Assembly: GCA_040880825.1 (NCBI GenBank)
Contig: JBBEEK010000028.1
Location: forward strand, 1 to 37,421
From: Chthoniobacterales bacterium
GTDB lineage: Bacteria; Verrucomicrobiota; Verrucomicrobiia; Chthoniobacterales; JACTMZ01
Direction: 5' to 3'
DNA length: 37,421 bases
Shown piece after piece: positions 16,711-37,421 of the stretch (its first letter is position 1; the number at the start of each line of letters is the position of its first letter). The notes beneath the pieces are model-generated. The model was not told the origin of the DNA. It ran no database searches and saw only the letters and a program-made list of their open reading frames with translations. Both the position numbers and the translations under genes were made by a program.

Positions 16711-16737
16711 GGAAGCAGTGACGTGGGCAGACCGTTG

Positions 16738-17423: not shown

Positions 17424-17429
17424 GCAGGA

Positions 17430-17457: not shown

Positions 17458-17464
17458 GGCGGGC

Positions 17465-19105: not shown

Positions 19106-19115
19106 TCCTTTCCCC

Positions 19116-20222: not shown

Positions 20223-20938
20223 GGCGCGAAATCGGCCTCCGCGTGCGTCACATCGTGGCGGATATTCGCGCCGTCGATCTCGGTGGTCCGGCCGCCGGCC
20301 TGCACGGACATCCCGGCGGGAATGTGGCGGCCGGTGTCGTCCTTGGCCACTTGCGTCGTCTCGATACGGCGGGCCAGTTTTCCGGATTTGTCATACTTTT
20401 CCACCCGCATGGTGACCATGCGCCGCGGATCGATCCAGCTGCGCACTTGGCCGTAGATGGTTGCGTCCCGGCGGCCGGGCCGGGACTCAAGGACGAGGCA
20501 CTCGGTTTTGCCCACGGTCTCCGTTCCGGCCAGGGTCTGCTTTTCCCAGCGGAAAAAGTTTTCGATGACGTCCGCGTAGGCCAGCGCTGTTCCGAAGACA
20601 GACTTTGACATCTCGGCCGCCCCGAGACGGACCGTGGCACCGCCGGGTGCTTTCACCACACCGCGGCCGGCTGGCCGGAGAACAAAAGCTTCGCCCTTGC
20701 GTTCGGCCGGCCAGAGAATTTCGTAGGCCGTAACCGCGCTGGCCGCGGTGCGCCGGGATTTGATCCGGATTTGCAGGACACCCGTTTCGGGCGAAGTCAT
20801 TTTCACGCGCGCCGTGGCATCTCCATCTTCCACCGCCGCGGCCATGGCCCCGGCCAGCTTCGGCGCGTTCCAGTCGGCGGCGGCGGCGAACGGGGCGGCC
20901 GCCAGCAGCACGGTGAGAGCAAGGGAGGGACTGCGCAT
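20219..20938 (-). CDS. Outer-membrane lipoprotein-sorting / LolA-like periplasmic protein
   Basis: Signal peptide from ATG 20938; VFGTALAYAD, CLVLES.P...YGQVRSWID...VEKYDKSGKLAR, typical of LolA-like proteins found with MacB-type ABC systems. Confidence 0.8.
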   Translation of the reverse strand: MRSPSLALTVLLAAAPFAAAADWNAPKLAGAMAAAVEDGDATARVKMTSPETGVLQIRIKSRRTAASAVTAYEILWPAERKGEAFVLRPAGRGVVKAPGGATVRLGAAEMSKSVFGTALAYADVIENFFRWEKQTLAGTETVGKTECLVLESRPGRRDATIYGQVRSWIDPRRMVTMRVEKYDKSGKLARRIETTQVAKDDTGRHIPAGMSVQAGGRTTEIDGANIRHDVTHAEADFAP

Positions 20939-20973
20939 GACTTCACGCACTGAAAGACTGGGGCGGACGGCGG

Positions 20974-22080: not shown

Positions 22081-22778
22081 GAAGTGACTCCGTCGGAAAC
22101 GACGCGTCCGTCGCGGATTTCCACCAGGCGCGAGGCGTGGGAGGCCAGCTCGCGGTCGTGCGTCACCATGACCAGCGTGGCGTCGTGCTCCCCGCGCAGG
22201 CGCTGGAGCAACTCCATGACGTGCGCGGAGTTTTTGCTGTCGAGGTTGCCGGTTGGTTCGTCGGCCAGAAGGATGGATGGACGGTTGGCCAGGCTGCGGG
22301 CGATGGCGGCGCGCTGGCGTTCTCCGCCGGACAACTTGACCGGCAAGTGGTCCAACCGGTGCGACAGTCCGACGCATTCGAGCAATTCGATGGCGCGGGC
22401 CCTGCGCGCGGCGGTGGAACCCGGCAGACCGAACATGGGGATCTGCACGTTTTCTTCGACCGTGAAATTCGGCAGGAGGTGGAACGATTGGAAGATAAAG
22501 CCGATGTCGCGCGCGCGATAAGCTGCCGGGTCGCCGAGCGAAGCCAAGTCGCGGCCGCGGAAATACAGGGTGCCCGCGGTCGGGCGATCGAGCAATCCGA
22601 GCATGTTGAGCAGGGTCGTCTTCCCGCAACCGCTCGGACCGACGATGGCCACGAATTCGCCGCGGCGGATGCGGAGGTCGATGCCGCGCAAGGCAGGGAC
22701 ACTGCCGCCGTCGTATTCCTTGGTCAGGCCGGCGGCCTCGTAGAGGATCTCGCCGGGCGGCGTTTCATGTCCCGGCAT
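22077..22778 (-). CDS. ABC transporter ATP-binding protein, LolD/MacB type
   Basis: GPSGCGKT, IGFIFQSFHL, LSGGERQR, ILLADEPTGNLD, VTHD; start ATG 22778. Confidence 0.94.
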   Translation of the reverse strand: MPGHETPPGEILYEAAGLTKEYDGGSVPALRGIDLRIRRGEFVAIVGPSGCGKTTLLNMLGLLDRPTAGTLYFRGRDLASLGDPAAYRARDIGFIFQSFHLLPNFTVEENVQIPMFGLPGSTAARRARAIELLECVGLSHRLDHLPVKLSGGERQRAAIARSLANRPSILLADEPTGNLDSKNSAHVMELLQRLRGEHDATLVMVTHDRELASHASRLVEIRDGRVVSDGVTS

Positions 22779-22786
22779 GGCGCGGT

Positions 22787-23752
22787 CTACTCGAACGCGG
22801 CCCACTGCGCGCCGACGCGGGGATCGCGCAGACGGGCGAGCAAATCGGCGAAGGCCGAGCGGTAGTTCGGGAAGGGCACCGTGTCGCCATGGTCCTGCGG
22901 CTCGATCAAACCGACATGGTCCGGCAGTTCCTCGTAAGGGATGGAACTTTTCACGTGATGGACGCCGTGCAGCGGTTGGTGCAGGAGGCTCAAGGCGACG
23001 AGGCGTCCGGGCGCCGTTTCCACGATGACGCTGCGCGTCGCGCTGCGCCCGGTGTTGCCGCTCAATCCGACGTGCTCGATGTATTTGCGCCAGCTTTGCA
23101 TGTTGCCGGCGATGAAGGCGGGAATGAAGTAAAGGACGAGGAACCAGTTCCACACGTTGAACCATGCGACGAGTCCGAGCACGGTGCCCCAGAGCGCGAT
23201 CATGCCCGCGGTCTCGCGCCAGATGCGTTGGCGCACGGTTTTGTTCGTCACCGGCGAAGGGCTTTGCAGGAAGACGCGCCAGAACAGGAGCGGTGTGTAG
23301 AAAAAGCCGAAGTTCAATTCGAGGAAAGCGGCCAAGCGGCGCCACCACAGCGGCTGTTGCGGATCGACGAAGGGCCAGAGTTCGAGGTCTTTCACCGTCG
23401 CCAGATTGACGTGATGTTTCTGGTGCAGGGCCCGGTAGAGGGTGAAGGGCGTGAGGCTGATCATGCCGACAATTTGGCCGTCGAATTCGTTGAGCCACTT
23501 GCTCTCGCGCAAATTGCCGTGTGCCGCCTCGTGGAAGGCGATGAGCATGGCGTGCATGAAATGGCTCGAGATGAGAACCAGGGGAATGATGAGCCAGAGA
23601 AAAGCCCCGCGGCCGGAGGTGTATTCATACATGCACCAGGCGAGCAGGCCGGCGGTCAGGTAAGTGCCGGTGGCCACCCAGGTGAAAGAGGCGCGGCAGG
23701 GCCAGGGCTCGGCATGCGCGGCGTGCGAAGGGTCTTTGACGGTCATGTGCAT
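22787..23752 (-). CDS. Membrane fatty-acid desaturase/hydroxylase family protein
   Basis: Three His boxes HEAAH, HQKHH and HGVHH, plus several TM helices. Confidence 0.9.
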   Translation of the reverse strand: MHMTVKDPSHAAHAEPWPCRASFTWVATGTYLTAGLLAWCMYEYTSGRGAFLWLIIPLVLISSHFMHAMLIAFHEAAHGNLRESKWLNEFDGQIVGMISLTPFTLYRALHQKHHVNLATVKDLELWPFVDPQQPLWWRRLAAFLELNFGFFYTPLLFWRVFLQSPSPVTNKTVRQRIWRETAGMIALWGTVLGLVAWFNVWNWFLVLYFIPAFIAGNMQSWRKYIEHVGLSGNTGRSATRSVIVETAPGRLVALSLLHQPLHGVHHVKSSIPYEELPDHVGLIEPQDHGDTVPFPNYRSAFADLLARLRDPRVGAQWAAFE

Positions 23753-23765
23753 GGCGGTTTTTCTT

Positions 23766-25139
23766 TCAGGTTGTCAGGGCGGCGGGGCGGGTTGAGGAAT
23801 TGCGCCCGACTTCACCGATGACGCCCCGGTAGATGCGGTCGAGTTCCGCAATATCCGCGTGGGTCAGGACGTCTGTCCGGTGCAGCCAGACTAACTCCAA
23901 ATTTCGGCCATCTTCCGTGATTTCGCAGCCGATGTCAAAGCGCGCCGTGCCCGTGGAAACCAGCTCGAGCCGGCTGGAAATGCCGGGAATATCGATGCCG
24001 GGGAAGGGGTGGTTTTGCACGGCAAAGCGGACATCGAAAACGGGGTGACGTCGGGCCATTTCCTCGCCTCCGACCGCCGCGGCCAGCTCGGCGAAAGGCA
24101 TGGCGCGGGCAAAATCGTCGACCACTCCGCGGTGCAGTTCGGTCAGCCCCGCATCGAAGGGCTGGTCCGGATCGAGCCGGGCGCGAAGCGGAACGTTACC
24201 CGAAAAATAGCCCATGGTTTCGCGGACAGCTGCCGTGGTCCGTCCGGCCACCGGCGTGCCGACCACGACGTCCGTCGCGCCGGCCCAGCGGAAGAGGGCC
24301 ACGCGGAACGCGGCGAGCAGGGTCGAAAAAAGGGTGACGCCCCGGGACTTGGCCAAGGCGCGCAGCGGGTCGACCAGGGCGCCGGCGATTCCGGCGTGCC
24401 AGCGGACGAGTGGTCCGGGTTGGAGGGTGCCGCGGTCGTGGAAGAGCGGACGCGAGCCCTCCAGCCGTTGGCGCCAATATTCGCCGTGCTTTTGCAATTC
24501 GGCTGGCGTCCACTGCGCCCGCTCCGTCGCCGCCCATTGCCCGTAGGTCGTGGCCAGGGCCGGTAATTCGAGCCGCATCGTCCCGAGGCGCGACATGTCG
24601 TTGCCGGCGCTTTGCCACGCGAGGAGGCAGCCAGTGGTGAAGTCGTGGACGAAATTGCTGAAGGTCCATCCGTCGGCGATGGAATGATGCAGGGCCAGGG
24701 CGAGCACGTGGTGGTCGGCGCCGCGCTTCAACATCTCGATGCGGTAGAGCGGTCCGCGGATGAGATCGATCGGTCGGGCGAAAAATTCTTCCGTCTGCGC
24801 GGGCCGGTGTTCATCGCCGGCGGCGGACGCCGGCAATTCGCGGTAGGACAAAACCGGATCGGCTTCGGCCCGCACCACTTGGAGGGGGCGTTCTTTGCCG
24901 GGCAGGAAAGTGGTGCGCAGGACATCGTGGCGCTTGATCACGTGGCCGAGGGCCTGCGTGCACATGGCGGGGGTGAGCGGTCCGCGGATGTCGAGGAAGC
25001 AGCAGATATTGTTCGAGGCGTCGCCCGGGGGCACGGCGGAGGCTTCCCACAACTCGCGCTGCGGAAAAGAAAGCGGCTCGAGCCGGGCCTTGCCGGCAGA
25101 CAGCCACTCTTTGAGTTTGCTCCGTGGGTCGGCTTCCAT
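23766..25139 (-). CDS. Free-standing NRPS-type condensation domain protein
   Basis: PLSFPQRELW, RHDVLRTTF, catalytic HHSIADG, YWRQRL, VVGTPVAGR...GYF, MPFAEL, ARFD. About 457 aa with no A or T domain. Start ATG 25139, 7 nt after the PKS stop. Confidence 0.92.
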   Translation of the reverse strand: MEADPRSKLKEWLSAGKARLEPLSFPQRELWEASAVPPGDASNNICCFLDIRGPLTPAMCTQALGHVIKRHDVLRTTFLPGKERPLQVVRAEADPVLSYRELPASAAGDEHRPAQTEEFFARPIDLIRGPLYRIEMLKRGADHHVLALALHHSIADGWTFSNFVHDFTTGCLLAWQSAGNDMSRLGTMRLELPALATTYGQWAATERAQWTPAELQKHGEYWRQRLEGSRPLFHDRGTLQPGPLVRWHAGIAGALVDPLRALAKSRGVTLFSTLLAAFRVALFRWAGATDVVVGTPVAGRTTAAVRETMGYFSGNVPLRARLDPDQPFDAGLTELHRGVVDDFARAMPFAELAAAVGGEEMARRHPVFDVRFAVQNHPFPGIDIPGISSRLELVSTGTARFDIGCEITEDGRNLELVWLHRTDVLTHADIAELDRIYRGVIGEVGRNSSTRPAALTT

Positions 25140-25146
25140 CCGCCGC

Positions 25147-28100
25147 CTACTCGGTGGTGGCCGCGACGGCGGTCCGGTTCGTTTCCGGTGCGGGCTGATC
25201 GGCGAGGATCTCCTCGAGCGCTCCGGCGTCGAGTTCGTCGAAATTGATTTCGTCGACCGTGACAACGGCTTCTTGGACGGGTGCCGCCGCGGGTGCGGTC
25301 TTGGTTCCGCCGCCGAGATGCTCGTCGATGAGCCCGGCGATCTGGCCGATGGTGCGTGCGCGCAGCAGGCTGGTCGGCGGCAAGGTCACCCCGACAGCAC
25401 TTTCAATCATGTTTTCGATCTCCACGCCCATGAGCGAATCGAGGCCGAGATCGGTCAGCGGTTGCTCCGGGCGGAGGGACTCGGGTTTGACGCGGAGGAC
25501 GGATCCGACCACTTCCTGCAGCGCCAGGATAATGATGCCCTGTCGCTCCGCGGGGGCGGCGGCATCGATGCGCTTGCGCCAATCGCCGACTTTGCCGGCG
25601 GATTCGTCGGCCTCGGCGGTGCCGGAGAGGACGCGCTCGAACAACCGGTTTTCCTGCGCGCCTTTCGATGCTTGGCGCCATTTGGCCCAGTCGATGCGCA
25701 TGCCCGCCGCCTGCGGGGCGCCCGTGCCGAGAAGAATCTCCAGCACTTCGAAAATTTCCCGCGGTTCGACGAGACCTGTGCCGATGCGCGCGAGGTATTC
25801 GGCCACGCGTTCGTTGCGCGCCACGTAGCCTTCGCCGCCGAGCGCACCCCAATTGACCGCGAGGGCCGGTTGTCCGAGAGACCGGCGGTGATGGGCCAGC
25901 GAGTCGAGGAAAGCGTTGGCCGCGGAATAGTTGCCTTGTGCGGGGTTGCCGAAAATGCTCGAGGCGGAGGAAAACATGACGAAAGCGTCGAGCGGTTGGT
26001 CGTGTGTGGCCTCGTGCAGGAGCCAGGCGCCGCGGGCTTTGGGATTGAGGACGGACGCCATGCGGTCCTCCGTCAGGTCGGCCAAGGGCGCATCATCAAG
26101 GACCATGGCCAGATGAAATACGCCTTTGAGCGGACGTCCGGCCGCGCGGATGCGGGTCATGACGGCATCCGCGCCCTCGGGCGTCCCGATATCCGCGGCC
26201 ACCGCGAGGACCTCCGTGCCGGCCGCATGCAACTCGGCGATGAATTCGTCCGCGCCCGGTGCAGCCGCGCCCTGACGGCTGGTCAGGACGAGATGACGCG
26301 CGCCTTTTTCCGCCAGCCAACGGGCCAGACTGCGTCCGAAGCCGCCGAATCCCCCGGTGACAAGGTAAAGCGCCTCCGCATCGACACGGAAAGGCGCGGC
26401 GGGAATTTCGCCTTGGCGCGAGACGAAGGGTTCGGCGAAATTCAAGATGACCTTTCCGGTGTGCTTGCCGCCGGCCATGAGACGGAAAGCGGCGTCGAGG
26501 CGGTTGACGGGGAAAGAGCGGTGCAAGAGCGGACGCAATTTTCCGGCGGCGACGAGCGCGGCGATTTCCGTCATGAGTTCGCGGGTCAGGGCCGCGTCGC
26601 CGGCGAAGACGGCATCCATGGCGACCACGTGAAAGGACGCGTTCTTGCGCAGGTGCCACATGGGCAGTTTGGAATTCTGGTAGATGTCGCGCTTGCCGAT
26701 CTCGATGAAACGTCCGAATTCGGCCAGACACGAGAGGCCCATGGGAATGGCTTCGGCGGCGAGGGCGTTGAGAACCGCGTCAACGCCGCGTCCGCCGGTC
26801 AGGCGTTTGACTTCCTCGGCGAAATCACCGCGGCGTGAATCCACCACATGCGCCACGCCGAGCGTCTGGAGCAGGGAGCGCTTGGCCGGGCTGCCGGCCG
26901 AGGCGATGACTTCGGCCCCGAGGTGATGCGCGATCTGGATGGCGGCCATGCCGACCCCGCCAGCTCCGGCGTGCACGAGGATTTTTTCGCCGGCGCGGAT
27001 CCGTGCCACGTTGACCAGCGAATGCCACGCGGTCATGAAAACGACCGGGATCGTCGCGGCCTGCTCGGGGGTGATCCCCTTGGGAATGGGCAACACATCT
27101 TCTGCGCGGGCCAGCGTGTGCGTAGCCAAACCGAAAACGGCCAGGCCGAAAACACGGTCGCCCGGTTTGACGTGGGTCACGCCGTCGCCGACCGCGAGGA
27201 CCTCGCCGGCCACCTCGTCGCCATACATGCGGGCATCGGCCGTCTCGGCCGGATAAAGTCCCAGCGCCTTGAGGACGTCGCGGAAATTCAAGCCGGCTGC
27301 CTCGACGCGGATCAGCACCTGACCCGGTTCGCAAACGGGCATGGTGAAAGCTGTGAGTTGCAGACTGTCGAGCACGCCGCGCTCGAGGGATTCGACGCGC
27401 AGCGGGACTTCGGGGCCGAGTTCGCGGGTGCGGACCGGCAAGCCGCGGGTCAGACGCAGTCCGTAGCGGGCCTCGTCGCGCAGGGCGATTTCGCGTTCCG
27501 GCTCATCGCGGGAAAGTTCGCCATGCAGGATTGCGGCATCGCGGGCCGAAGCGCGCGGTGGAAGGTCGATGCTGCGGACCACAACGTGGGGGTTTTCGTT
27601 GAGCAGGACGCGGAAAACTCCCAACACGGCGCCCGCGCCAAGGTCGATGGATTGGCGATCGCGTCCGACCGGTTGCGCGCCGCGGGTGACCACATCAACC
27701 CGGAGACCGCTGGCCGCCGCACCGAACCGGCCGAGGAAAACGGAAAGATTGCGCAGGGCCGTGGCATCGCGTTGGAACTCGCCGTCGCGGGCCGTGGCCA
27801 GGCCCCACAAATAAACGATACGCCGGGGTATCTCGGCGGACACCGCCTCGGCCAGCTTGGCCCAATCGGCCTCGCTCGATGGATCGATGGTGTATCCGTC
27901 CTGGCTGGCGCTGAAGTCCGTGCCCCGACGCACGACGCCGCAGGTTCCGCCGGCCGCGACAAGGGAAGTGGCCAGTCCGGCGCCGGTGCCTGCGTCGTCC
28001 GCAAAAACCAACCAACCGGCCGCCGGCATCTCCACCGCTTGGCCGGCGACGGCGCTTTCTTCCGCCTTGCGCGCCATGGCCAGAAATTGCGACTCCCCGC

Positions 28101-31100
28101 CCTCCGGCCCGGCCAGACCCGGCACGCTTGCGGTCTCCGCGAATCCGCATTCGCGCAATAGTTCCTCCCACCGTTCGCGCCCGAGAAGCGGGTGATCGGT
28201 CCGCAGGTCGGTGTCGGTCATGCTCCACCAACCGGACGTGAGCCCGAAGACGGACTCGGTCCAGGTGCGCGGCGAAGCCACATCGACAAAAGCCAGCGTC
28301 CCGCCGGGGGCAAGCAGGCGGTGGAGACGCCGCAAAGTCGCGCGTAAATCGCACGCGGCATGCAGGACATTCGTGCCGATGATGAAATCGAAGGAGCCTT
28401 CATCGAATCCCTGTTCGAAAGGCTCGCGATTCAAGTCGAGCGGCTGGTATTCGACCTCGGGGAAGCTGGCCAGCTTTTGCTGCGCCGAGGGGAAGAAGGC
28501 GGCCGACGCGTCGGTGAACACGTAGCGATGCAGTTCACGCTGCAAACGCGGAAGGACATAAGCGGCCAAACCGCCCGTGCCCGCGCCGACTTCAAGAATG
28601 CGGAGCCCGCGACCTTCGGGCAAAGCCAAGGCGGAGCGCCGCAGTGCGGTGGCCACGCCGGCCAGCCAGGGCGAGGAAAAGATGCCGTCGCTGTAAAAAT
28701 GCTCGAGCAAATCGGAACCGGCCCCGGTGAAGAGGACCTGCACGGCGTCCTTCTCCCCGCGCATGATCGCGGCGAAGTTCCGTCCGGTGGTCGCGCCCAA
28801 GAGCGCCTGCGGATAGTGCTCGGGGCGGGCTTGGAGAAAGGTGCGCAATTTGTCTTCGGCCGTGCCGGCCCACGCATCGAAGTGGTCCGTCGCCGCCCAA
28901 CCATCCTGCCGCGCCGCAAGCGCGCCGCGTCCGGCCAGCGCTTCCATCAAGCGGGCGAAGACGCGCTGCTGCGGCTCGACGACGCGGAGCGAGCCGGCGG
29001 TGAAGTTGCCGCCCTCGCGCACGCCCATCTCGTGCAAGCCGGCGGCCACGAAAGCGGCGGCGAGATCATCCTCCTCGCCCATGACCTGCCGCATGTTGTC
29101 TTCGCCGCGCAGGGCGACGACGCTGGACCCCGCCTCCGCGGCCGAGCGCTGCAATTCCGCCAGCGGGACACCGGGAGTTTCCAGCGTGTCGGCCGGCCCC
29201 GGCAACCTCTGCCAATCGAGATGGTAAACGAGGTCGCGCCAGCCGGATGTTCCGCCTTTTTTGCCGAAGGACAAAGCCACGGCGCGGAAGCCTTCGACGT
29301 AAACGGCCGGACGCCCGGCTTCGTCATAAAGTGAAATATTGCCCTCGATCAGCTCGTCGTTGTTTTGCGTCACTTCGGCGCGGACCCGTGCCGCGGCCCC
29401 GGGAGTGCGCAGGAAAAGGATGCGCGAGAAACGCACCGGCAATTTCATTTTTTCCTCGAGGCCTTCCATGGCGCGGCCCCCGGCCGAGAAGACGTGGAGC
29501 GCGGCATCCATGATGACCGGATGCATTGCGTAGTCGCCGGCGCGTTCGGCCGCGGTCTCCGAGAGCGAAACGCGACCTGCGGAACGGCCGGCGCGCGTGG
29601 CCAGTTCCCGCACGGCACGGAATTCCGGACCGTAGGGCAGACCGAGGCGCGCCATCGTTTCGTACGAGCTTTCCGGCGATTGTCCTTCGAATCCGGCGGT
29701 CGCATCTTGCCAGGGCGAATTTTCGAATGCCGACGCGACGCGCTCGGACCGCAGCGAGCCGACGACATGCACCGACCAATTGGGCGAGGGCTCGAAGCGG
29801 CTTTGGATGTTGAAGGTGCGTTCGACCGGGTCGTAGGTCAGCTCCATGACCAAATCCTCCACCGCCTCCGGCACGATGAGGGGCTTGCGGATTTCGAATT
29901 CCTCGACGGCGAAGGGCCGTCCCTCGAACAATTCGCGCCCGGCCTCGAGCGCCATTTCGATGAAGCCGGCGGCGGGAAAGACAATGTGTTTGTCGACGCG
30001 GTGGTCGCGCAGGTAGGCGAGGTGACGTTCGTCGAGCCGGCAGGTCCAGGTCGGCACGGAACGCAGCAGTTTGGCGTCGAGCAACCCGCGACCGCCGGGA
30101 TGAAGCCGCCCGTGCTGGGCCTCACCCGACTCGCTCCACCAGCGGGCTTTGTTCCAGGGATAAGTCGGCAACTTGAGCAGACGACGGGACGGAGTCATCG
30201 CCTCGAAGCGCAGCTCGACGCCGAGACGGTGCAGGTCGTTGGCCGCCTCGACCAGAGCTTCCTGCTCGCGTTCGCGTCGCGTGGAGGAGACGACTTGTGT
30301 TTTCCCGCCGTTGCCGGCCAGACATTCCTGGATGGAAATGGCCAGCGCGGGGTGCGCGCTCAATTCCAGCCAGATGTCCACGCCGTGCTCTGCCATGGAG
30401 CCGACCGCTTCGACGAAGCGCACCGGCTGACGGATCCCGCGCGCCCAATAGGAGGCCACGCAGTCCTCGCCGCGGCAACGTTCGCCGGTCACGGTGCAGA
30501 AAAAAGGCACGGTCTCGGCGCGCGGTTGCAAATGCGCCAAGCGCTTTTCCACGGCGTCGGCCGCCGGTTGCATCATGGCGTGGTGGAAGGGATGGCTGAC
30601 GCGCACAAAGCGGGCGAAAATTCCCGCCGTCTCCAGTTCGGCCGCCATTATTTCGAGGGACGTCTTGCGTCCGGACATGGTGAGCGACTTCGGACCATTG
30701 AAGGCCGCGATGCTCACTTCCGGATCATGGCGGGCGATCAATTCTCCGGCTTCCGCCGGCGAGAGTCCCACCGCCAGCATGGCGCCTTCGCCGTGGGTGC
30801 AATCCTGCATCGACTGCGCGCGAATCACGATGATCTCGGCCGCCTCCTCGAGCGTGAAGATCCCCGCGAGGCAAGCCGCGGCCACCTCGCCGACGCTGTG
30901 GCCGACGATGCACGAAGGTTCGATGCCGCGGGACTTCCATAGTTCGGCCAGTGCGATCTGCATGGCGAAAATGGCGGGTTGGGCGAATTCGGTCTGACCA
31001 AGGCGCGTTTCACTCTCATCGCGCATCAATTCCTCGAAGAGGGAAAAACGGGCATGCGGGGCCATGGCCGCCGCGCAGCGTTCCATGGCTGCGCGGAAAA

Positions 31101-32799
31101 CCGGTTCGGTCCGCATGAGTTCGCGTCCCATCCCCCACCATTGCGGCCCCTGTCCGCTCATGACAAAGCCGATGCGCGGGGCGTGTTCGGGTGCGGGTGT
31201 GAACGACGTTTTCAACTCCGGACTGGCGCCTTCCTGCGCGAATTCGCGCAAGGCGTCAGCCAGTTGACGGTCCGATTTCGGCGCACCGGTCAGCCGGTAA
31301 GAATGATGGTTGCGTCGTGCGCCGAGCGTGTGAACCAGATCCGGCAGCAGCGATGATACGCCGTTGGCGCGAAGCTTGGCCTCGATCCATGACGCGAGGT
31401 TCGCGGCGGAGGCCTTGAGCGATTCTTCGGAACGCGCGGAGAGGACGAAAGGCCAGGCGCGATTGTCTTCGACGACGACAGCGGACGACTCGGGGCGCGC
31501 GGGAGGTTCGGAGAGAATGACGTGTGCGTTGGCCCCGCCGAAACCGAAAGAATTCACGCCGATGGTGCGCGGTTTTTTTCCATCGCCCGGGAAATCCTCG
31601 GTGGCCACCGGCACGCGCAGACGGCAGGCCTCGAAATCGATGTGCGGACTCGGTTCCTTGAAATTCAGGCTCGGCGGGATTTTTCCGCGGTTGGCCACCA
31701 GCGCGGCTTTCATCAGTCCGGCCACGCCGGCGGCTGTCTCGAGGTGTCCGAGATTCGTCTTCACCGAACCGATGACCAGAGGGTGTCCGGCAGGACGTTC
31801 CTGACAAAGCGCTTCGGCCAGCGCATGCGCTTCGATCGGATCACCGACCGCGGTGCCCGTGCCGTGCGCCTCCACGTAGCCGATGTCGGACGGATCAATG
31901 CCGGCGATGACGCAGGCCTTTTTGACCAACCGGGCTTGCGCCTTCTGGCCGGGGAGGGAAATGCCGTTGGTGTGTCCGTCTTGGTTCGTCGCCGTGGCGC
32001 GGATCACCGCGTAAACCGGATCGCCGTCGGCCAGGGCCCGCGCCAACGGCTTGAGCACCACCATGCCGGCCCCTTCGCCGCGCACGAAACCGTCGGCCGA
32101 CGCGTCGAACGCTTTGCAGCGACCTTCCGGGGAAAGCATGCTGGCGCGCGAGAATCCGATGAAGCCCTCGGGCGTGATCATGACCGTCACGCCGCCGGCC
32201 ATGGCCACCGGACAATGCCCCGCCGCCAGCTGCTCGCAGGCGATATGCACCGCGGTGAGCGCCGCCGAGCAGGCGGTGTCCATCGCGATGCTCGGCCCGG
32301 TCAGGTTGAAGCAATAAGAAATGCGATTGGCCGCGATGCTGTGCGCGTGCCCGGTCGGGGTGTGCGCGCAGATGCGCGAACGGTCGCCCCCGCCGCCCTG
32401 GATCGACTGGTAATCGTTGTGCGAGACGCCGACGAAGACCCCGATGTCCGTGCCGTTGCCCAAGTCGAGCACGAGGCCGGCATCCTCCATCGCCTCCCAA
32501 GCCGTCTCGAGGAGGAGGCGTTGCTGCGGATCGATGGAGGGAGCCTCGCGGGGTGAGATGCCGAAAAATTGCGGGTCAAACTGGTCGATGCCATTGATGA
32601 ACCCGCCGCGCTTGGCGATCGATTTGCCGGGCAACCCGGCCTCCGTGTCATGAAAGCGCGCGATGTTCCAGCGGTCGGCCGGGATTTCGGACACCGCCTC
32701 GCGTCCTTCGAGCAGGAAGTTCCAGAAATCCTCCGGATTGTTCAGACCGCCGGGAAAGCGGCAGCCCATTCCGATAATGGCAATGTCTTCCTTCTTCAT
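25147..32799 (-). CDS. Single-module highly reducing type I PKS: KS-AT-DH-cMT-ER-KR-ACP (no TE, no loading domain)
   Basis: KS: DTACS, HGTGT, KTNLGHLE. AT: GHSVG, HPFH. DH: DHRVDKHIVFP, HPVIMD. cMT: LEVGAGTGG, TNVLHA. ER: NFRD, LVHAGAGGVG. KR: TGGFGGFG, HLAMVLDD, GNPAQGNYSAAN. ACP: LGLDSLM. Confidence 0.97.
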   Translation of the reverse strand: MKKEDIAIIGMGCRFPGGLNNPEDFWNFLLEGREAVSEIPADRWNIARFHDTEAGLPGKSIAKRGGFINGIDQFDPQFFGISPREAPSIDPQQRLLLETAWEAMEDAGLVLDLGNGTDIGVFVGVSHNDYQSIQGGGGDRSRICAHTPTGHAHSIAANRISYCFNLTGPSIAMDTACSAALTAVHIACEQLAAGHCPVAMAGGVTVMITPEGFIGFSRASMLSPEGRCKAFDASADGFVRGEGAGMVVLKPLARALADGDPVYAVIRATATNQDGHTNGISLPGQKAQARLVKKACVIAGIDPSDIGYVEAHGTGTAVGDPIEAHALAEALCQERPAGHPLVIGSVKTNLGHLETAAGVAGLMKAALVANRGKIPPSLNFKEPSPHIDFEACRLRVPVATEDFPGDGKKPRTIGVNSFGFGGANAHVILSEPPARPESSAVVVEDNRAWPFVLSARSEESLKASAANLASWIEAKLRANGVSSLLPDLVHTLGARRNHHSYRLTGAPKSDRQLADALREFAQEGASPELKTSFTPAPEHAPRIGFVMSGQGPQWWGMGRELMRTEPVFRAAMERCAAAMAPHARFSLFEELMRDESETRLGQTEFAQPAIFAMQIALAELWKSRGIEPSCIVGHSVGEVAAACLAGIFTLEEAAEIIVIRAQSMQDCTHGEGAMLAVGLSPAEAGELIARHDPEVSIAAFNGPKSLTMSGRKTSLEIMAAELETAGIFARFVRVSHPFHHAMMQPAADAVEKRLAHLQPRAETVPFFCTVTGERCRGEDCVASYWARGIRQPVRFVEAVGSMAEHGVDIWLELSAHPALAISIQECLAGNGGKTQVVSSTRREREQEALVEAANDLHRLGVELRFEAMTPSRRLLKLPTYPWNKARWWSESGEAQHGRLHPGGRGLLDAKLLRSVPTWTCRLDERHLAYLRDHRVDKHIVFPAAGFIEMALEAGRELFEGRPFAVEEFEIRKPLIVPEAVEDLVMELTYDPVERTFNIQSRFEPSPNWSVHVVGSLRSERVASAFENSPWQDATAGFEGQSPESSYETMARLGLPYGPEFRAVRELATRAGRSAGRVSLSETAAERAGDYAMHPVIMDAALHVFSAGGRAMEGLEEKMKLPVRFSRILFLRTPGAAARVRAEVTQNNDELIEGNISLYDEAGRPAVYVEGFRAVALSFGKKGGTSGWRDLVYHLDWQRLPGPADTLETPGVPLAELQRSAAEAGSSVVALRGEDNMRQVMGEEDDLAAAFVAAGLHEMGVREGGNFTAGSLRVVEPQQRVFARLMEALAGRGALAARQDGWAATDHFDAWAGTAEDKLRTFLQARPEHYPQALLGATTGRNFAAIMRGEKDAVQVLFTGAGSDLLEHFYSDGIFSSPWLAGVATALRRSALALPEGRGLRILEVGAGTGGLAAYVLPRLQRELHRYVFTDASAAFFPSAQQKLASFPEVEYQPLDLNREPFEQGFDEGSFDFIIGTNVLHAACDLRATLRRLHRLLAPGGTLAFVDVASPRTWTESVFGLTSGWWSMTDTDLRTDHPLLGRERWEELLRECGFAETASVPGLAGPEGGESQFLAMARKAEESAVAGQAVEMPAAGWLVFADDAGTGAGLATSLVAAGGTCGVVRRGTDFSASQDGYTIDPSSEADWAKLAEAVSAEIPRRIVYLWGLATARDGEFQRDATALRNLSVFLGRFGAAASGLRVDVVTRGAQPVGRDRQSIDLGAGAVLGVFRVLLNENPHVVVRSIDLPPRASARDAAILHGELSRDEPEREIALRDEARYGLRLTRGLPVRTRELGPEVPLRVESLERGVLDSLQLTAFTMPVCEPGQVLIRVEAAGLNFRDVLKALGLYPAETADARMYGDEVAGEVLAVGDGVTHVKPGDRVFGLAVFGLATHTLARAEDVLPIPKGITPEQAATIPVVFMTAWHSLVNVARIRAGEKILVHAGAGGVGMAAIQIAHHLGAEVIASAGSPAKRSLLQTLGVAHVVDSRRGDFAEEVKRLTGGRGVDAVLNALAAEAIPMGLSCLAEFGRFIEIGKRDIYQNSKLPMWHLRKNASFHVVAMDAVFAGDAALTRELMTEIAALVAAGKLRPLLHRSFPVNRLDAAFRLMAGGKHTGKVILNFAEPFVSRQGEIPAAPFRVDAEALYLVTGGFGGFGRSLARWLAEKGARHLVLTSRQGAAAPGADEFIAELHAAGTEVLAVAADIGTPEGADAVMTRIRAAGRPLKGVFHLAMVLDDAPLADLTEDRMASVLNPKARGAWLLHEATHDQPLDAFVMFSSASSIFGNPAQGNYSAANAFLDSLAHHRRSLGQPALAVNWGALGGEGYVARNERVAEYLARIGTGLVEPREIFEVLEILLGTGAPQAAGMRIDWAKWRQASKGAQENRLFERVLSGTAEADESAGKVGDWRKRIDAAAPAERQGIIILALQEVVGSVLRVKPESLRPEQPLTDLGLDSLMGVEIENMIESAVGVTLPPTSLLRARTIGQIAGLIDEHLGGGTKTAPAAAPVQEAVVTVDEINFDELDAGALEEILADQPAPETNRTAVAATTE

Positions 32800-32828
32800 G
32801 CATCAGGGCCCGAGGCAACCAACCGGCA

Positions 32829-32857
32829 AGTCTGGCAGCCGCCCCGACGCGGCGCAA
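32829..32857 (-). promoter_or_regulatory. Candidate sigma70-like promoter of the PKS operon
   Basis: Minus strand TTGCGC-N17-CAGACT with TGn just before the -10 element, in the 78-nt gap between the cyclase stop and the PKS start; visual match only. Confidence 0.3.
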
Positions 32858-32877
32858 GAACGGGGCTGCGCCACCGC

Positions 32878-34971
32878 TCAAGCGCGGGTCAAATGGTAAA
32901 GCTGGAAGGCGCCGAAGCCCTTGGGTAGTGGGGTTTCCCCCGCGTATTCGAAGCGTACCCCGGGAATACCGAAGGCGGTGGCCAGCGCGGCCACCGTGCG
33001 GCTGGCATAGACATGGTTGACCGGCGTGATTGGTTCGATGCGCGCCGCCCGGTTGACCAAGCTGCCGGCCACGTCGCGGCAACCGCTCACCGGGTCGTCG
33101 AATTCGAGCACCGGACCCGCATCGAGCGAGATGCGCAGCCCGAGATCCTCCGGCAGCCCGAGGGCCGACCAATCGACGGCGCGGATCGCGTCGCGCAGCT
33201 CGAGGCTGCAACGGATGGCGTCCGGCAAGTCTTTGAAGACCATGAAAAGCCCGTCGCCGGCCGTCTTGATCGTCACCGTCCGGTCGCGGAAGTGGTCGAC
33301 CGCGGCGCCCACGCGTCCGAGAAATTCGCGCGCGAAGACGCGCAACCGCGGCGCATCCAACCGGCTGTAGCCTTTCGCATCGGCGCACAGCACGGCCCGG
33401 AAGGGCGCGCCGTCGCCCGGCACCCCGAGATCCGCTGCTTCGGCCGGCGGCAATCCGGTCGGCACGATGTCGAGCTCGCCGGACCGCAGCAACACGGAAC
33501 CGCGGAAGAAGGCGCGCGCCAGGGCCGGGCTGATATCTTCGCGGACGATCTGCGTTTCCTTTTGTCCGAGCACGCGCGTGGCGCGGCGCATCACGGTCTC
33601 GAGCAGGGCATGCTCGGCGGGCGACAACCGGTCGCGGAATTTTTCCAGCGGCTCCTCCAGCCCCAGTTGGAATTCCGAGCAATGGGCGGCCAGGGCCGCG
33701 GCTTCCGTCAGTTGCCCGGGCTCGTGCAGGTAATAAAAAACCACCGCGTCTTCCGGCGGCGCGTCCGCGGCGGGTCCGCCGACGCCGGCCACACGCAACT
33801 CCGGGAGGCGGAACCAAGCGGCCACCTCGTTTTCCGGGAAGCCGGTGCGTCGCGCGGTTTCCAGCGCCTGCCGCCGCATGGATTGCAGCGGGCGCCAGCG
33901 GTTGCGCAGGGCCTGCGCGGCGGCGCGGTAAGCGGTGGCGGCCGGTTCCGCTTCGTGCCGCAGAAGGTGCGCCTCGCCGCGCGTCGCCTCGAGCCAGGGG
34001 TCGGGGGTTGCCTCACCGCGTTTTTTCTCCACGGCGTCGCACAGGCCGAGCACCTCGGCGGCCAGCCCGTGCGCTTCGTCGCGGCGTCCCGACCAGGCGG
34101 CCATGGCGGCGGCATTGATGCCGAGGTAGTAGGCCGAGGTGGCGGACTCAAGACTGTTCTCTTTGCCGAAAAGATCGCGAACTGTGTCATAAGCCGCATG
34201 GTAAGTGGCGCGCGCCTCCTCGAAGCACCGCCGCGCTTCGCCGGGCTCGGCGGCCCGCAACCCGCGCGCCTTGGCCAGACGGCCGCGCAGTCCCGGCAGA
34301 TCGCCGCCGAGCCATTGTTCGCTGCCGATTTTGGCGATTTCCTGCGAGGCGCGTTCCAGGGCGCCGACTTCCATGAGCGACAACGCGGCGAGGTAGCGCA
34401 GCCGCGCTTCGAGTTCCGGCGGCATTTCGTCGCTCCCGCCCGCGGCCAGGGTGCGCGAGACCATGTCGAAAGCGAGCAGCGGCCATCCGGCGTCGGACGC
34501 CCGGCGCGCCAGACGGTAAAGCAACACGGGGTGGTGGAGCCAGAAATCGGGCAAATGAGCCCGCCACAGCAGGTCTGCTTCCTCGAAGCGCAGACTGTCC
34601 GCGGCCTCGAGTGCGGCGGCCACGACCCGCGCTTCGTCCGCGGCGACGTCGTCCGTCTTGGCCGCGGCCGCGATCCGGTAGCCATCCTGGTAGAGGCCGC
34701 GCAGCGTGGTCAGCGCGGTGGTGCGGTCGTAATTTTTCTCCACTTCCGGCAACGCGGCGTAGGACACGAGGTTCGGCGTGGTCTTGCGCTCGTCGTCGCG
34801 TCGCGGCCCGTAGGTCCATCCTTCCTCCAAACGCTGCGCGGCCCATCGATCGTGCACTTTTTCCGCGAGGCGCTCGACCAGCGGCGCGAGGAAGTCCGGC
34901 AGCCTGACGGCCGCCGAGGCGTCCGGCGGGGGGGACCACGCCGGGGCAGGGGAGTCGGAGGAATCAGTCAA
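32878..34971 (-). CDS. RyR domain + TPR-like (DUF4071/TPR-S-like) region + class III nucleotidyl cyclase
   Basis: RyR: LAEKVHDRWAAQRLEEGWTYGPRRDDERKTTPNLVSYAALPEVEKNYD. Helical repeats: YYLGINAA, WLEATRGEAHLL. Cyclase: ADAKGYS, IKTAGDG, LRISLDAGPV, DVAGSLVNRAARIE. Probable TTG start at 34971 overlapping the upstream stop. Confidence 0.85.
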   Translation of the reverse strand: MTDSSDSPAPAWSPPPDASAAVRLPDFLAPLVERLAEKVHDRWAAQRLEEGWTYGPRRDDERKTTPNLVSYAALPEVEKNYDRTTALTTLRGLYQDGYRIAAAAKTDDVAADEARVVAAALEAADSLRFEEADLLWRAHLPDFWLHHPVLLYRLARRASDAGWPLLAFDMVSRTLAAGGSDEMPPELEARLRYLAALSLMEVGALERASQEIAKIGSEQWLGGDLPGLRGRLAKARGLRAAEPGEARRCFEEARATYHAAYDTVRDLFGKENSLESATSAYYLGINAAAMAAWSGRRDEAHGLAAEVLGLCDAVEKKRGEATPDPWLEATRGEAHLLRHEAEPAATAYRAAAQALRNRWRPLQSMRRQALETARRTGFPENEVAAWFRLPELRVAGVGGPAADAPPEDAVVFYYLHEPGQLTEAAALAAHCSEFQLGLEEPLEKFRDRLSPAEHALLETVMRRATRVLGQKETQIVREDISPALARAFFRGSVLLRSGELDIVPTGLPPAEAADLGVPGDGAPFRAVLCADAKGYSRLDAPRLRVFAREFLGRVGAAVDHFRDRTVTIKTAGDGLFMVFKDLPDAIRCSLELRDAIRAVDWSALGLPEDLGLRISLDAGPVLEFDDPVSGCRDVAGSLVNRAARIEPITPVNHVYASRTVAALATAFGIPGVRFEYAGETPLPKGFGAFQLYHLTRA

Positions 34972-35665
34972 ATTGGATCGTGCGGCTGTCTTGCACGGGG
35001 AAGGGCGCCTGCGTCGCGGGCTGGCTCGGACGCGATGACGGGGCGGCGGGCGCCGGTTGTGAAGACGGCGGGGCGGGGGCGGGGGCGGCCGCACCGGCAT
35101 TTTGCTCGCCCCAATCGATGAGGCGCGGACCATTTGGCGCCGGTCCTGCTTGCGGCGCTGGTTGTCCGCCGCCGCCGGAGCGGCGCTCCTGCAATGCGGC
35201 GATGGCGCCGAGATCGGGCAGACGCCATTTTCCCTCGCGGTCGGCCTTGATATTGATGGTGTAAGTGCTCACGCGCTGCCCCGTTCCTCCGGACAAGCCG
35301 AAGGTGAGTTCGGTGTTGTAGGGAAAACCCTGCTCATCGAGGGGCGTGGAGATGGTGCTGGAGCTGACCGGATCGACCGTCAGGCCGGGAAAGGCGCGCG
35401 TGAGGGTGGCGCGCAACTCCGGCATCAGGCTCTCAAGATTGCGGCCCAAGACCTCGCGGCCGAGGAAATCACTGCGGGCCGCCTTGCTGCGGGCCTCCTT
35501 GAGTTCGGTTTCGAGCCGGGCCTTCTCGCGGTCCAGGTCGCCGAGGCGCGTCCGCAATTCGGCTATCTCTTGCCGGATCTTGGGATCTTCCGATTCGCAG
35601 CCGGCCAAGACCGCCCCCAGGAGAGGCAGGGCAAAGATGGCGCGGACGATGGATCTCGGGGGCAT
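34964..35665 (-). CDS. Predicted lipoprotein with N-terminal coiled coil and Pro-rich C-terminal tail
   Basis: ATG 35665; lipobox LAGC; heptad pattern IRQEIAELRTRLGDLDREKARLETELKEA; ends in PAPAP...PFPVQDSRTIQFD. Confidence 0.75.
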   Translation of the reverse strand: MPPRSIVRAIFALPLLGAVLAGCESEDPKIRQEIAELRTRLGDLDREKARLETELKEARSKAARSDFLGREVLGRNLESLMPELRATLTRAFPGLTVDPVSSSTISTPLDEQGFPYNTELTFGLSGGTGQRVSTYTINIKADREGKWRLPDLGAIAALQERRSGGGGQPAPQAGPAPNGPRLIDWGEQNAGAAAPAPAPPSSQPAPAAPSSRPSQPATQAPFPVQDSRTIQFD

Positions 35666-35685
35666 TCGACAACGGATAATAGAAG

Positions 35686-35723
35686 ATTTTAAAGTTGCCA
35701 ACGGCAGAGGCAATTCCTAAAGA
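35686..35723. promoter_or_regulatory. AT-rich overlapping divergent promoter candidates
   Basis: Minus strand TTGCCT-N16-TAAAAT (35713-35686); plus strand TTGCCA-N17-TAAAGA (35695-35723); lies in the divergent intergenic region. Confidence 0.4.
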
Positions 35724-35759
35724 GATCACTTCAAGAATCACCTCCCAAGCTTCCCACCG

Positions 35760-36572
35760 ATGAAAAAACTCCTCAGCCTCCTTGTCCTTCTCACTCTCTC
35801 CGCGCCGGTCCTCGCGCAGGACGAAAAAGAAAAACCCGCCTTCGACAAAAGCAAAGCCGAGGTCGCGCCGCTGCCGCTGCCCAATCCCTCCGACAAGCTC
35901 ATCGCCATCGAGGAATCCGTTGGCGCCGGCAAGATCGACTGGAGCGCGCTGGCTGACGGCATCGCCGTGGATGTCGATGCCAACGACTTTCCCGACCAAG
36001 CCGATGCCGCCATGGCGCTCGGGGTGAAAATCGCCGACGGCATTGTCGCCATCAAGGCGCAGGACGTGGAGAAACTCAACCGCAGCGCCGACCAGCTCGA
36101 GGCCCTCGGCAAAAATCTCGGCGCCACCGACGAGGATATGAAGCGCGCCCGGCAAGTCCGCGATTTCGCCAACCGCGGCGAGTGGCTCATGGTCTACCTC
36201 GAACTCGGTTTCTTGCAGGCCGACATCATGAAGAAGCTCAACACGCCGGAGAACCAGAACGACCGCACGCTGGTCATCGCTTCCGGCTGGCTGCAAGGCG
36301 CGCGCTACGCCAGCAGCCTCATCCTCGCCAACTACACGCCCGATTTGTCCAACATCCTGCGCGAACCCGTCCTCGCCGCCGAACTCGACAAGCAACTGGC
36401 CGCCCTGCCGGCTGCGTTCCAGGAATCGGAAAAAGTCCGCCAGATCCGCCTGGCCGTCGGGCAAGCCGCGCAGATTGTCGACGTCCCGCTCACCGCCCCG
36501 GTCGCGCAGGATAAAGTCGAGCAACTCAAGTCCGTAAGCGACACCGCCGTGATGGCCATTACGACCAAATGA
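35760..36572 (+). CDS. Secreted/periplasmic alpha-helical hypothetical protein
   Basis: Clear signal peptide MKKLLSLLVLLTLSAPVLA; helical body (AMALGVKIADG..., SGWLQG); strong third-position C/G codon bias. Confidence 0.8.
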   Translation: MKKLLSLLVLLTLSAPVLAQDEKEKPAFDKSKAEVAPLPLPNPSDKLIAIEESVGAGKIDWSALADGIAVDVDANDFPDQADAAMALGVKIADGIVAIKAQDVEKLNRSADQLEALGKNLGATDEDMKRARQVRDFANRGEWLMVYLELGFLQADIMKKLNTPENQNDRTLVIASGWLQGARYASSLILANYTPDLSNILREPVLAAELDKQLAALPAAFQESEKVRQIRLAVGQAAQIVDVPLTAPVAQDKVEQLKSVSDTAVMAITTK

Positions 36573-36610: not shown

Positions 36611-37421
36611 ATGAACAAACTTACCGCTCCCCGCAAAATCGCCCTCCTGCTTATGGCCTCGGCCGTTTTCGCGGCCCATCCCGCCGCGGCCGACCCGGCC
36701 CAAGCCGAGGACGTGGCCTACCGCATGGCCAAAACCTACATCGACCGCAGTTTTGTCATCGCCCCGACCGATAATTTCGGCCTGGTCGGCCAAGGCGGGG
36801 TCATCCAGTTCTTCGTCCCGGTCAACCGCGGGCTCGACTACGTCTTCCTCGCCGGAACCGACGGCATGGCGCGCGACGTGGACATTTACGTCTATGACGA
36901 AGTCGGTAACCTCATCCTCGACGACCGTCGCCGCCAGAAAAACGCCGGCGTCCAGTTCCGCTCGAGCTACAACGGCACCGCCATCGTCTATCTCCACATG
37001 GCGGGAGCCGAAGGCATCGCTTCATGGTGCGTGCTCGTCGGCCGGCGCGGCGCGGAGAAAGCCAGTTTGCAGGCCGGCTTGCCGGGCGGGGGGGCAGCGC
37101 CATCTCCTACCCCATTTTTAACCCCATCACCGACTCCCCAAGACCCCAGTCTGTCAGCGACCGGTGCGCCCGGTAAGCTGAGCACCGTCTCCGGCACGGC
37201 CTCCGAGCCGCGAAGCTTCACGGTCAAAGGCAACGCCCTGCGCGGTGCCGTGCGCTTGAATGCGCCGGCGGGTGTGCAGGTTTCCAAGGACGGCGTCGAT
37301 TACAGCCGCAGTCTGTCCATTCAGCCTAGTGATGGCGGTTTGGGTGACACCACGATCATGGTGCGCCTCGACCCCGGGGCCCAACCCATCGACGAACTGA
37401 CGGGAGACATCGTGGTCGAAA
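36611..37421 (+). CDS. Secreted multidomain protein (beta-sandwich/PPC-like domain, Pro/Thr linker, Ig-like domain); runs off the right edge
   Basis: Not in the ORF track. Open from ATG 36611 to the window end: MNKLTAPRKIALLLMASAVFAAHPAAA|DPAQ...YVFLAGTDGMARDVDIYVYDEVGNLILDD...PSPTPFLTPSPTP...SFTVKGNAL...VSKDGVDYSRSLSI. Confidence 0.8.
   Translation, partial: MNKLTAPRKIALLLMASAVFAAHPAAADPAQAEDVAYRMAKTYIDRSFVIAPTDNFGLVGQGGVIQFFVPVNRGLDYVFLAGTDGMARDVDIYVYDEVGNLILDDRRRQKNAGVQFRSSYNGTAIVYLHMAGAEGIASWCVLVGRRGAEKASLQAGLPGGGAAPSPTPFLTPSPTPQDPSLSATGAPGKLSTVSGTASEPRSFTVKGNALRGAVRLNAPAGVQVSKDGVDYSRSLSIQPSDGGLGDTTIMVRLDPGAQPIDELTGDIVVE

Follow-up and report, generated by a model that had tools for sequence, protein, structure and literature searches.

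What signal would a cyclase answer to when its sensor side carries a ryanodine-receptor repeat, and where would the answer go? This question is raised by a minus-strand gene (32878..34971) in a 37,421-nucleotide stretch of a Chthoniobacterales bacterium (Verrucomicrobiota; assembly GCA_040880825.1, contig JBBEEK010000028.1, positions 1 to 37,421), the whole of which is called the window below. The gene encodes a protein of 697 amino acids (aa), in which a single RyR repeat, a TPR-S helical region, a SLOG remnant and a class III nucleotidyl cyclase follow one another. We give a probability of about 55% to a Thoeris-like relay with two messengers, in which the product of a TIR-domain protein would be read by the RyR/TPR-S part of this protein and answered with cyclic AMP (cAMP).

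The open reading frame (ORF) list and its translation show the minus-strand frame open from its first ATG (32878..35133, 751 aa). Forty-nine close homologues (54–92% identity) are mostly about 680–706 aa long, and their N-terminus is the equivalent of a TTG codon at 34971. This TTG was chosen as the start because it gives the homologue length of about 697 aa and the equivalent MTDSS beginning; the ATG at 35133, which would place a Pro/Arg-rich head before it, was dropped on the same comparison. The stop codon lies at 32878–32880. The GC content at third codon positions is 0.82, like that of the flanking genes, and a plus-strand ORF of 702 aa over the same DNA (33013..35121) was treated as an antisense artefact. 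No transmembrane helix was found in the 697-aa protein: the highest 19-residue Kyte-Doolittle mean is 1.17, which argues that the protein has no membrane helix. An initial annotation, made from the letters of the window alone, had placed the gene at these coordinates and reported no transmembrane helix, and both statements agree with the homologue lengths and the hydrophobicity profile.

The catalytic domain occupies aa 523–697 (32881..33405, minus strand). Its sequence is divergent, but its fold and motifs are clear. Pfam PF00211 matches the window protein with E 0.034 and 14.2 bits, below the cut-off of 21.9, and is matched at E ≤ 0.01 by 20 of the 35 aligned family members; in NCBIfam the sole match was a weak and partial one to LipJ, with 23 bits where the cut-off is 800. 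A profile of the whole family run against the PDB was dominated by RyR matches and uninformative on the cyclase, and the C-terminal sequence and a structural model were used instead. With phmmer, the C-terminal 200 aa matched the solved cyclase 3mr7 (E 9e-7), corresponding motif for motif. An AlphaFold 2 (AF2) model of aa 385–697 had a mean predicted local distance difference test score (pLDDT) of 89.1, and Foldseek matched it to Rv1900c, CyaB and Ma1120 with E down to 4.9e-12, TM-scores of 0.75–0.84 and root-mean-square deviations (rmsd) of 2.6–2.8, Rv1900c standing at E 4.9e-12, TM-score 0.79–0.84 and rmsd 2.6. The cyclase homology domain of Rv1900c (LipJ) and Ma1120, both mycobacterial, and Pseudomonas aeruginosa CyaB, the best structural matches, share the catalytic residue set; they differ from the window protein in having unrelated regulatory domains and an identity of just 18–28%.

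All the motifs quoted in the initial annotation were found: the metal-binding Asp residues D531 (ADAKG) and D573 (GDG), K569 (IKTAG), D633 (RDVAG), and N640 and R644 of the N..AAR motif. Among the 35 family members D531, D573, N640, R644 and K684 are invariant, and K569 and D633 are at least 90% conserved, so every catalytic motif is present and, to judge by this conservation, under selection. In class III cyclases a Lys/Asp pair specifies ATP. K569 lies four residues N-terminal of the GDG metal Asp and D633 three residues ahead of G636, which we take to be the positions of that pair. The earlier reading of a soluble, sensor-gated class III cyclase with an adenylate-cyclase Lys/Asp signature is thus borne out as a sequence-based prediction. 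A six-frame search of the genome with PF00211 (E ≤ 0.1) found one further class III cyclase-like gene (G000:C155:5752-6021) and missed the divergent cyclase domain of the window itself.

At the other end of the protein, the RyR repeat covers aa 13–101 (34669..34935, minus strand), close to the extent first proposed for it (about 34675–34885). PF02026 matches with E 5e-23 and 81.6 bits against a cut-off of 27.4, and ryanodine-receptor repeats in the PDB match with E down to 5e-45. None of the residues H40, W43, R47, R58 and D82 varies among the 35 aligned sequences. According to two reports, the animal R12/RY12 domain binds ADP/ATP, with the adenine stacked on W882 and with R886, R897 and H904 near the phosphates (PMC13642953, PMC12627627). 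In an alignment to the PDB repeats, W882, R886, R897 and H904 of RyR1 align with W43, R47, R58 and T65. In a 2026 preprint, RyR-domain proteins of phages (RyDEP and relatives) are described as homodimers that cleave or tightly bind 2'/3' cyclic ADP-ribose (cADPR); six of eight RyDEP homologues tested bound it, with nanomolar affinity in the two measured, and the key RyDEP residues are H75, W78, H100 and D117 (PMC13232231). Mapped by spacing, with no direct alignment, these would correspond to H40, W43, T65 and D82.

Modelled as two copies, aa 8–112 of the window protein gave a score of 0.58, the best control giving 0.00; dimers like the modelled one have already been solved, so the score speaks for likeness only and may derive from those structures. 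The homodimer runs agree in at least 80% of contacts with pLDDT of at least 81, and the interface is symmetric and includes residues 38–46. The mark that this model passed was attained in calibration by 20 of 30 solved homo-pairs and by 1 of 23 single chains.

The helical repeat region that follows, also recognised in the initial annotation, spans about 270 aa (aa about 115–385; 33817..34629, minus strand) and contains a TPR-S match at aa 185–290 (34102..34419, minus strand; PF20308, E 1.3e-7) that lies above the curated cut-off, with 32.6 bits against 27.6. By Pfam, TPR-S is found in 32 and RyR in all 35 of the aligned family members.

Between TPR-S and cyclase lies a linker (aa about 408–518; 33418..33750, minus strand, delimited by hhalign and AF2 secondary structure) that had first been called a possibly decayed SLOG-like insert without a glycine-rich loop. 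Distant relatives (P0052–P0054, about 29% identity) have about 90 extra residues at this place, with FxGHM and SAACGAD motifs. An AF2 model of the middle domain of the relatives (pLDDT 93.8) had YpsA as its best Foldseek match (E 3.7e-7), followed by DprA, ShosA, LOG and a Moco carrier protein. VIA ranked YpsA first as well (Z 19.2, rmsd 2.9 over 161 aa), then DprA (12.8), ShosA (12.5) and LOG (about 10), with the TRPM2 N-terminal domain at Z 9.7 and the SLOG domain of 3'cADPR-bound ThsA at Z 7.2. All the best structural matches are SLOG-superfamily proteins.

When the alignment of this middle domain from 33 loci was compared by hhalign with that of the window's own family, only columns 61–157 of the former paired, with columns 424–517 of the latter (probability 85.6%, E 5.6e-6, 93 columns); columns 1–60 of the relatives, holding FxGHM, helix 1, strand 2 and SAACGAD, had no counterpart in the window's linker. 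Comparison of the two AF2 models indicates that strand 1 (VVFYYL), helix 2, strand 3 (EFQLGL), helix 3, strand 4 and the long helix 4 are kept, and that helix 1, strand 2, the GH and SAACGAD glycine-loop motifs and the last beta-alpha-beta unit are gone. A complete Rossmann-like core with a glycine-rich loop after strand 2 was not found in the linker model, which has just three to four strands. Because the linker is homologous to part of the relatives' SLOG domain and lacks the glycine-loop half, we read it as a decayed SLOG stump, which on these models is not a working SLOG domain and would make canonical ligand binding impossible. The original suggestion of a decayed SLOG-like insert thus holds. 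In this lineage SLOG is now probably a mere structural spacer.

To place the protein in its family, a profile was searched against 1.84 billion representatives, giving 11,732 matches at E ≤ 0.001, of which 1,001 reach E ≤ 1e-30. The best 150 representatives (all E ≤ 1.6e-65) and four others yielded 152 sequences (50% identity) classified by local hidden Markov models (HMMs); the ranking profile itself holds RyR and the SLOG remnant, which biases the architecture proportions among the 152. RyR was present in 99, of which 70 have a full SLOG, 25 its C-terminal part only and 4 no SLOG; the 53 without RyR comprise 49 with a full SLOG, 3 with the C-terminal part only and 1 with neither. At least the C-terminal part is kept in 147 of 152, and the N-terminal half was lost more often with RyR (25/99) than without (3/53), a difference to which the profile bias applies. 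Many SLOG-bearing relatives have Asn or Gly for the cyclase Lys and Ser for Asn; in the window subfamily these residues are those of a canonical adenylate cyclase.

Among the species genomes of GTDB, a scan gave 164 confirmed relatives, from Verrucomicrobiota, Acidobacteriota, Planctomycetota, Spirochaetota, Gammaproteobacteria and others. The order of the window organism has a relative at E ≤ 1e-30 in 13 of 151 sampled genomes and its genus in 9 of 31, an uneven spread of the kind seen in accessory genes. What had been described as an unusual combination is therefore a large family, in which RyR, TPR-S, often SLOG, and cyclase are joined across many phyla. The combination is widespread yet undescribed in the literature searched, where we found no description of a TIR-linked cyclase or of cellular RyR fusions beside TIR genes; earlier work of the Aravind group may mention TPR-S or SLOG cyclase fusions. 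Neither "cyclase" nor "fused" occurs in the text of the RyDEP preprint (PMC13232231). The new part would be Thoeris-like TIR signalling with a cyclase output, and the twist that this window adds is the natural loss of the SLOG pocket. One deltaproteobacterial relative (L020:8001-10228) stops after the TPR-S region, as a frameshift or decayed copy, and has a 183-aa TIR gene upstream.

The decisive context, missed in the initial annotation, is a conserved partner gene with a TIR domain, displaced by 16 kb in the window. This probable partner (13405..16875, minus strand) encodes, by Pfam, a TIR domain (16366..16698), a Ser/Thr kinase and Sel1 repeats. Its TIR_2 match (E 3.3e-21) is the only one in the 1.33-Mb assembly. 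Aligned with PdTIR (3h16, E 6e-8), the Glu of "..NNEI.." pairs with that of "..QKEL..", which we take to be the catalytic position.

For the relatives, 80 of the 164 loci were kept for neighbourhood analysis, and the fetched ±8 kb around each was searched with an iterated local TIR HMM. A TIR ORF was found near 34 of the 80, and near 27 of the 50 whose flanks reach at least 3 kb on either side; of the 34 TIR-bearing loci, 31 have it no more than 1.5 kb away and 23 have it on the same strand. Pfam TIR_2 was confirmed on all 19 ORFs sampled (18 loci). The C-terminal parts of the TIR partners vary, including Sel1, TPR, WD40, FGE-sulfatase, CHASE2 and SIR2. In the closest relatives the cyclase neighbour is the orthologue of the window's TIR-kinase-Sel1 gene, 78% identical in L001, where the stop-to-stop frames of the two genes are 4 nt apart; across L001, L002 and L005 they are 4 nt apart or overlap by 7 nt. 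The gap figure for L072 is an artefact of overlapping stop-to-stop frames.

Within the genus, the cyclase is present in 9 of 31 genomes and the close TIR in 9, both together in 8 and neither in 21, counts that are not independent, the genomes being related. The only cyclase-only and TIR-only genomes are 65% and 60% complete, respectively. A distant TIR paralogue occurs in 2 of the 21 genomes without cyclase or close TIR, and the TIR gene adjoins the cyclase gene in 7 of the 9 cyclase-bearing genomes. The gene order varies, in that TIR follows the cyclase in L001, L002 and L005 and precedes it in three genomes of the same genus (G099, G052, G073), which argues against mere shared synteny. TIR genes are scarce, with one or two in each of three complete relatives. 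The first guess of a link to nucleotide-based conflict or signalling systems has held.

RyR genes outside the cyclase family were also found beside TIR genes. PF02026 matched in 16 of 301 Verrucomicrobiota genomes, and 18 loci were fetched around 23 places outside the window (L112–L129, from G295, G264, G214, G324, G375, G409, G244, G412, G457, G260, G445, G360, G015, G192 and G350). The cyclase, TPR-S and SLOG profiles had no match in these 18 loci; RyR there either forms the C-terminal domain of a RelA/SpoT, AAA, ABC-transporter or TrkA_N protein or is a small protein by itself. In 10 of the 18, a TIR_2 ORF confirmed by Pfam lies no farther than about 7 kb from the RyR gene, which it directly adjoins in several, among them L122 (TIR-NB-ARC-TPR) and L127 (TIR-AAA-TPR). 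Two local HMM matches were excluded from the counts, that of L114 being false (an RHS repeat protein) and that of L117 lying under the Pfam cut-off. One TIR gene, the one beside RyR, is present in G260, and two, one of them beside RyR, in each of G192 and G350; G324 has 10 and G244 has 14. The RyR module by itself thus tracks TIR genes.

In the relay we propose, the variable repeats of the TIR-kinase-Sel1 protein would sense a trigger, and its TIR domain would use NAD+ to make a signal derived from ADP-ribose, for instance a cADPR isomer. The receiver would be a cytosolic, homodimeric cyclase protein that reads this signal with its N-terminal sensor part: its single RyR repeats may pair across the dimer as an R12-like clamp, and/or its TPR-S scaffold may bind the ligand. 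On binding, the two cyclase domains would be brought together as an active dimer that converts ATP to cAMP, in the service of defence or of stress signalling. We infer the direction from TIR to cyclase because the TPR-S/SLOG side is constant and the repeats of the TIR partners are varied, because SLOG and phage RyR domains bind TIR-made signals (TPR is presumed to), and because the TIR proteins carry no cyclic nucleotide monophosphate (cNMP) receptor. On the TPR side, the authors of the type VIII Thoeris study presume that the TPR domain of ThsI perceives TIR-made cADPR and tie it to one that Burroughs and Aravind (2020) predicted in TIR signalling (10.64898/2025.12.03.692087).

The same gene pair could be read in the opposite order, as in Pycsar: the RyR/TPR-S cyclase would sense and make a cyclic nucleotide, and TIR would be the NAD-depleting effector. 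Pairs of a Pycsar cyclase with a TIR effector exist, and the conserved adjacency of the two genes is silent on direction. However, the TIR partners have no cNMP-binding or GAF domain, and their C-terminal parts are so varied that no common cNMP receptor is left; TPR-S, SLOG and RyR are kinds of domain reported to read TIR products (SLOG and phage RyR by experiment, TPR-S by prediction); and no PADLOC Pycsar model matches the cyclase protein. We regard the Pycsar-like order as distinctly unlikely. The window system resembles Pycsar in pairing a cyclase of the same fold class with a TIR protein in the genome, and differs in the missing PADLOC match, in TIR partners without a cNMP-binding domain and in a Lys/Asp pair that predicts a purine (ATP) substrate.

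The distance between the two genes bears on a second alternative. The cyclase and TIR genes are split by a block of about 16 kb (16876..32877, no strand assigned), in which Pfam identifies lipid and polyketide genes (17363..32799) for an alpha/beta hydrolase, a LolA-like protein, MacB/FtsX, a fatty-acid desaturase, a condensation domain and a type I polyketide synthase (PKS). The PKS, of 2550 aa (KS-AT-DH-MT-ER-KR-ACP), is encoded on the cyclase strand, and its gene begins 78 nt past the stop codon of the cyclase gene. The block is absent between the adjacent TIR and cyclase genes of L001, L002 and L005, and we read it as an insertion relative to these relatives; no tRNA or flanking direct repeat was found to mark it. 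When 32600..35900 was scanned for promoters and terminators, terminator-like sites occurred at chance level overall, and none fell between the cyclase and PKS genes.

This arrangement would suit a stand-alone metabolic sensor whose RyR clamp reads ADP/ATP, as proposed for RY12 of RyR1, and tunes housekeeping cAMP, the TIR link having been lost in this genome; the gene may then serve the PKS cluster directly downstream. Besides the 16-kb separation and the short same-strand gap to the PKS gene, in which no terminator-like site was found, such a role is favoured by the description of RY12 as an ADP sensor (PMC13642953) and by Opitutia-type relatives that do without a TIR neighbour. On the other hand, the cyclase and TIR genes are both intact, the only TIR gene of the assembly lies on the same contig, presence and absence of the two are coupled within the genus, and TPR-S is retained in 32 of the 35 members. 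A stand-alone sensor is unlikely in our estimate.

In the Opitutia-type loci (L008–L013 and L022), a GAF protein, a subtilase (Peptidase_S8), the RyR-TPR-S-cyclase and an ABC transporter form a conserved run, the first two lying upstream of the cyclase. In six of them the transporter that flanks the cyclase carries a cNMP-binding domain at its C-terminus (PF00027, E 7e-15, 2e-16), and the seventh locus is cut at a contig end. Their cyclases have Arg/Glu in place of Lys/Asp and degraded SLOG motifs, and a TIR gene occurs only in L011 (TIR-SIR2, 3 kb away). Among the 80 loci, a cNMP-binding neighbour was found in just these six and in L045. The cNMP-binding ABC neighbours fit a cyclic-nucleotide product. 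In the window's own assembly, the sole cNMP-binding gene found (L111:3729-5459, plus strand, on contig C139 of G000) combines cNMP_binding, an NTE P-loop and a patatin phospholipase; that this unlinked gene is the cAMP reader is conceivable as a speculation.

The scarcity of such readers would suit a third alternative, in which the cyclase is itself the terminal effector and the TIR signal switches on an ATP drain, an abortive-infection type of nucleotide depletion. Most TIR-linked loci have no nearby cNMP-binding protein, L045 and the Opitutia group being the exceptions among the 80, and manipulation of nucleotide pools is a common effector logic according to the type VIII Thoeris study (10.64898/2025.12.03.692087). 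Against this, the cNMP-binding ABC neighbours at six loci and the cNMP-binding patatin gene in this genome point to a reader of cAMP. Class III cyclases, moreover, are signalling enzymes of modest turnover. We consider an ATP drain very unlikely.

Several observations weigh against the relay from TIR to cyclase. In the window 16 kb separate the TIR gene from the cyclase gene, so that co-regulation is not evident, and no TIR ORF was seen at 46 of the 80 loci, many of which lie on short contigs; the RyR-bearing Opitutia-type relatives mostly have no TIR neighbour. PADLOC finds nothing for the cyclase protein (E ≤ 1) or for two distant relatives, and matches the TIR partner solely through its kinase domain. 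The neighbourhood, with a Bat operon and a PKS, is not a defence island. No cNMP-binding effector lies beside the cyclase gene, and Pfam finds no cNMP-binding domain within the window. The SLOG pocket is lost in the window protein. In its RyR domain, Thr65 replaces the phosphate-binding His of RyR1 and RyDEP, and the RyDEP glycosidase dyad appears to be kept, so that the signal might be degraded rather than sensed. Finally, the non-canonical cyclase residues in many SLOG-bearing relatives suggest that the output may differ across the superfamily.

Compared with described systems, the proposed relay is nearest to Thoeris. Type VIII Thoeris (ThsB and ThsI; canonical cADPR) likewise consists of a TIR gene and a TPR scaffold fused to a Rossmann-type nucleotide domain and an output. 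ThsI joins TPR to a "CMP hydrolase" effector, whereas the window protein has a class III cyclase output, an added RyR and a decayed SLOG; in the window the TIR gene is not adjacent, and the ThsI TPR is likened to PF20308 by description. With type I Thoeris ThsA (SIR2-SLOG; 3'cADPR-bound, PDB 7uxs) the relatives share a SLOG middle domain (ThsA match at Z 7.2). Unlike ThsA, their nearest SLOG clade is YpsA (Z 19.2), the window copy has no glycine-loop half, and the output is a cyclase, not SIR2. Phage RyDEP shares PF02026 and is a homodimer, the state modelled for the window's RyR repeat, and its H..W and D ligand or catalytic positions are kept here, as mapped by spacing (H40, W43, D82); RyDEPs are small anti-defence proteins of phages, whereas RyR is here the N-terminal module of a TIR-linked, multidomain cellular enzyme (PMC13232231).

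If the relay exists, its output would set it apart. In the Thoeris-type systems known so far, the last component is an effector that either kills the cell or depletes a metabolite. With a cyclase in that place, the NAD-derived signal made by TIR would be turned into a second, classical messenger, cAMP; such a two-tier relay would, to our knowledge, be without a tested bacterial example. More tentatively, and with doubts that keep it short of probable, cellular RyR domains may be native receptors or self-limiting hydrolases for TIR-made signals of the cADPR type, a sensor class beside SLOG, Macro and TPR-S. The RyR module would then gate many outputs, the class III cyclase here and RelA/SpoT, ABC transporter, AAA and TrkA_N in other Verrucomicrobiota; phage RyDEP sponges would be captured host receptors, and the link between cADPR and the ryanodine receptor would gain a bacterial ancestry. 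In animal calcium channels the RyR repeat binds ADP/ATP and serves as a regulatory and drug-binding domain; the ligands of its phage homologues are cADPR isomers. With bacterial RyR fused to various outputs and repeatedly found beside TIR, binding of cADPR-type ligands is testable on a small soluble protein. The window subfamily offers a natural dissection, with SLOG disabled and RyR and TPR-S intact.

Upstream of the cyclase gene lies an ORF (34964..35713, minus strand) whose product we read as a lipoprotein from its signal peptide and LAGC lipobox; it also has a coiled-coil stretch and a tail rich in Pro and Ala. The stop codon of this ORF overlaps the TTG start of the cyclase gene (TTGACTGA). 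It is probably outside the module, since it is kept only in the syntenic L001 and L002. On the far side of the window, just past the TIR-kinase gene, a complete operon of the Bat/MoxR aerotolerance type (4402..12702, plus strand) encodes a MoxR AAA protein, DUF58, DUF4381, BatA, a BatB-like VWA-TPR protein, BatD and a TPR-SH3 protein.

Beyond the window end, a gene for an FHA, ABC_tran and ABC-2 membrane protein (L081:1498-4248, minus strand, equal to G000:C28:37986-40796) is syntenic with L001 and L002; a genome search shows one TGA inside the wider match. FHA domains bind phosphothreonine, and the presence of one near the TIR-Ser/Thr-kinase gene may not be chance. The last 55 bp of the window (37367..37421) are repeated exactly about 155 bp onward, at G000:C28:37522-37576.

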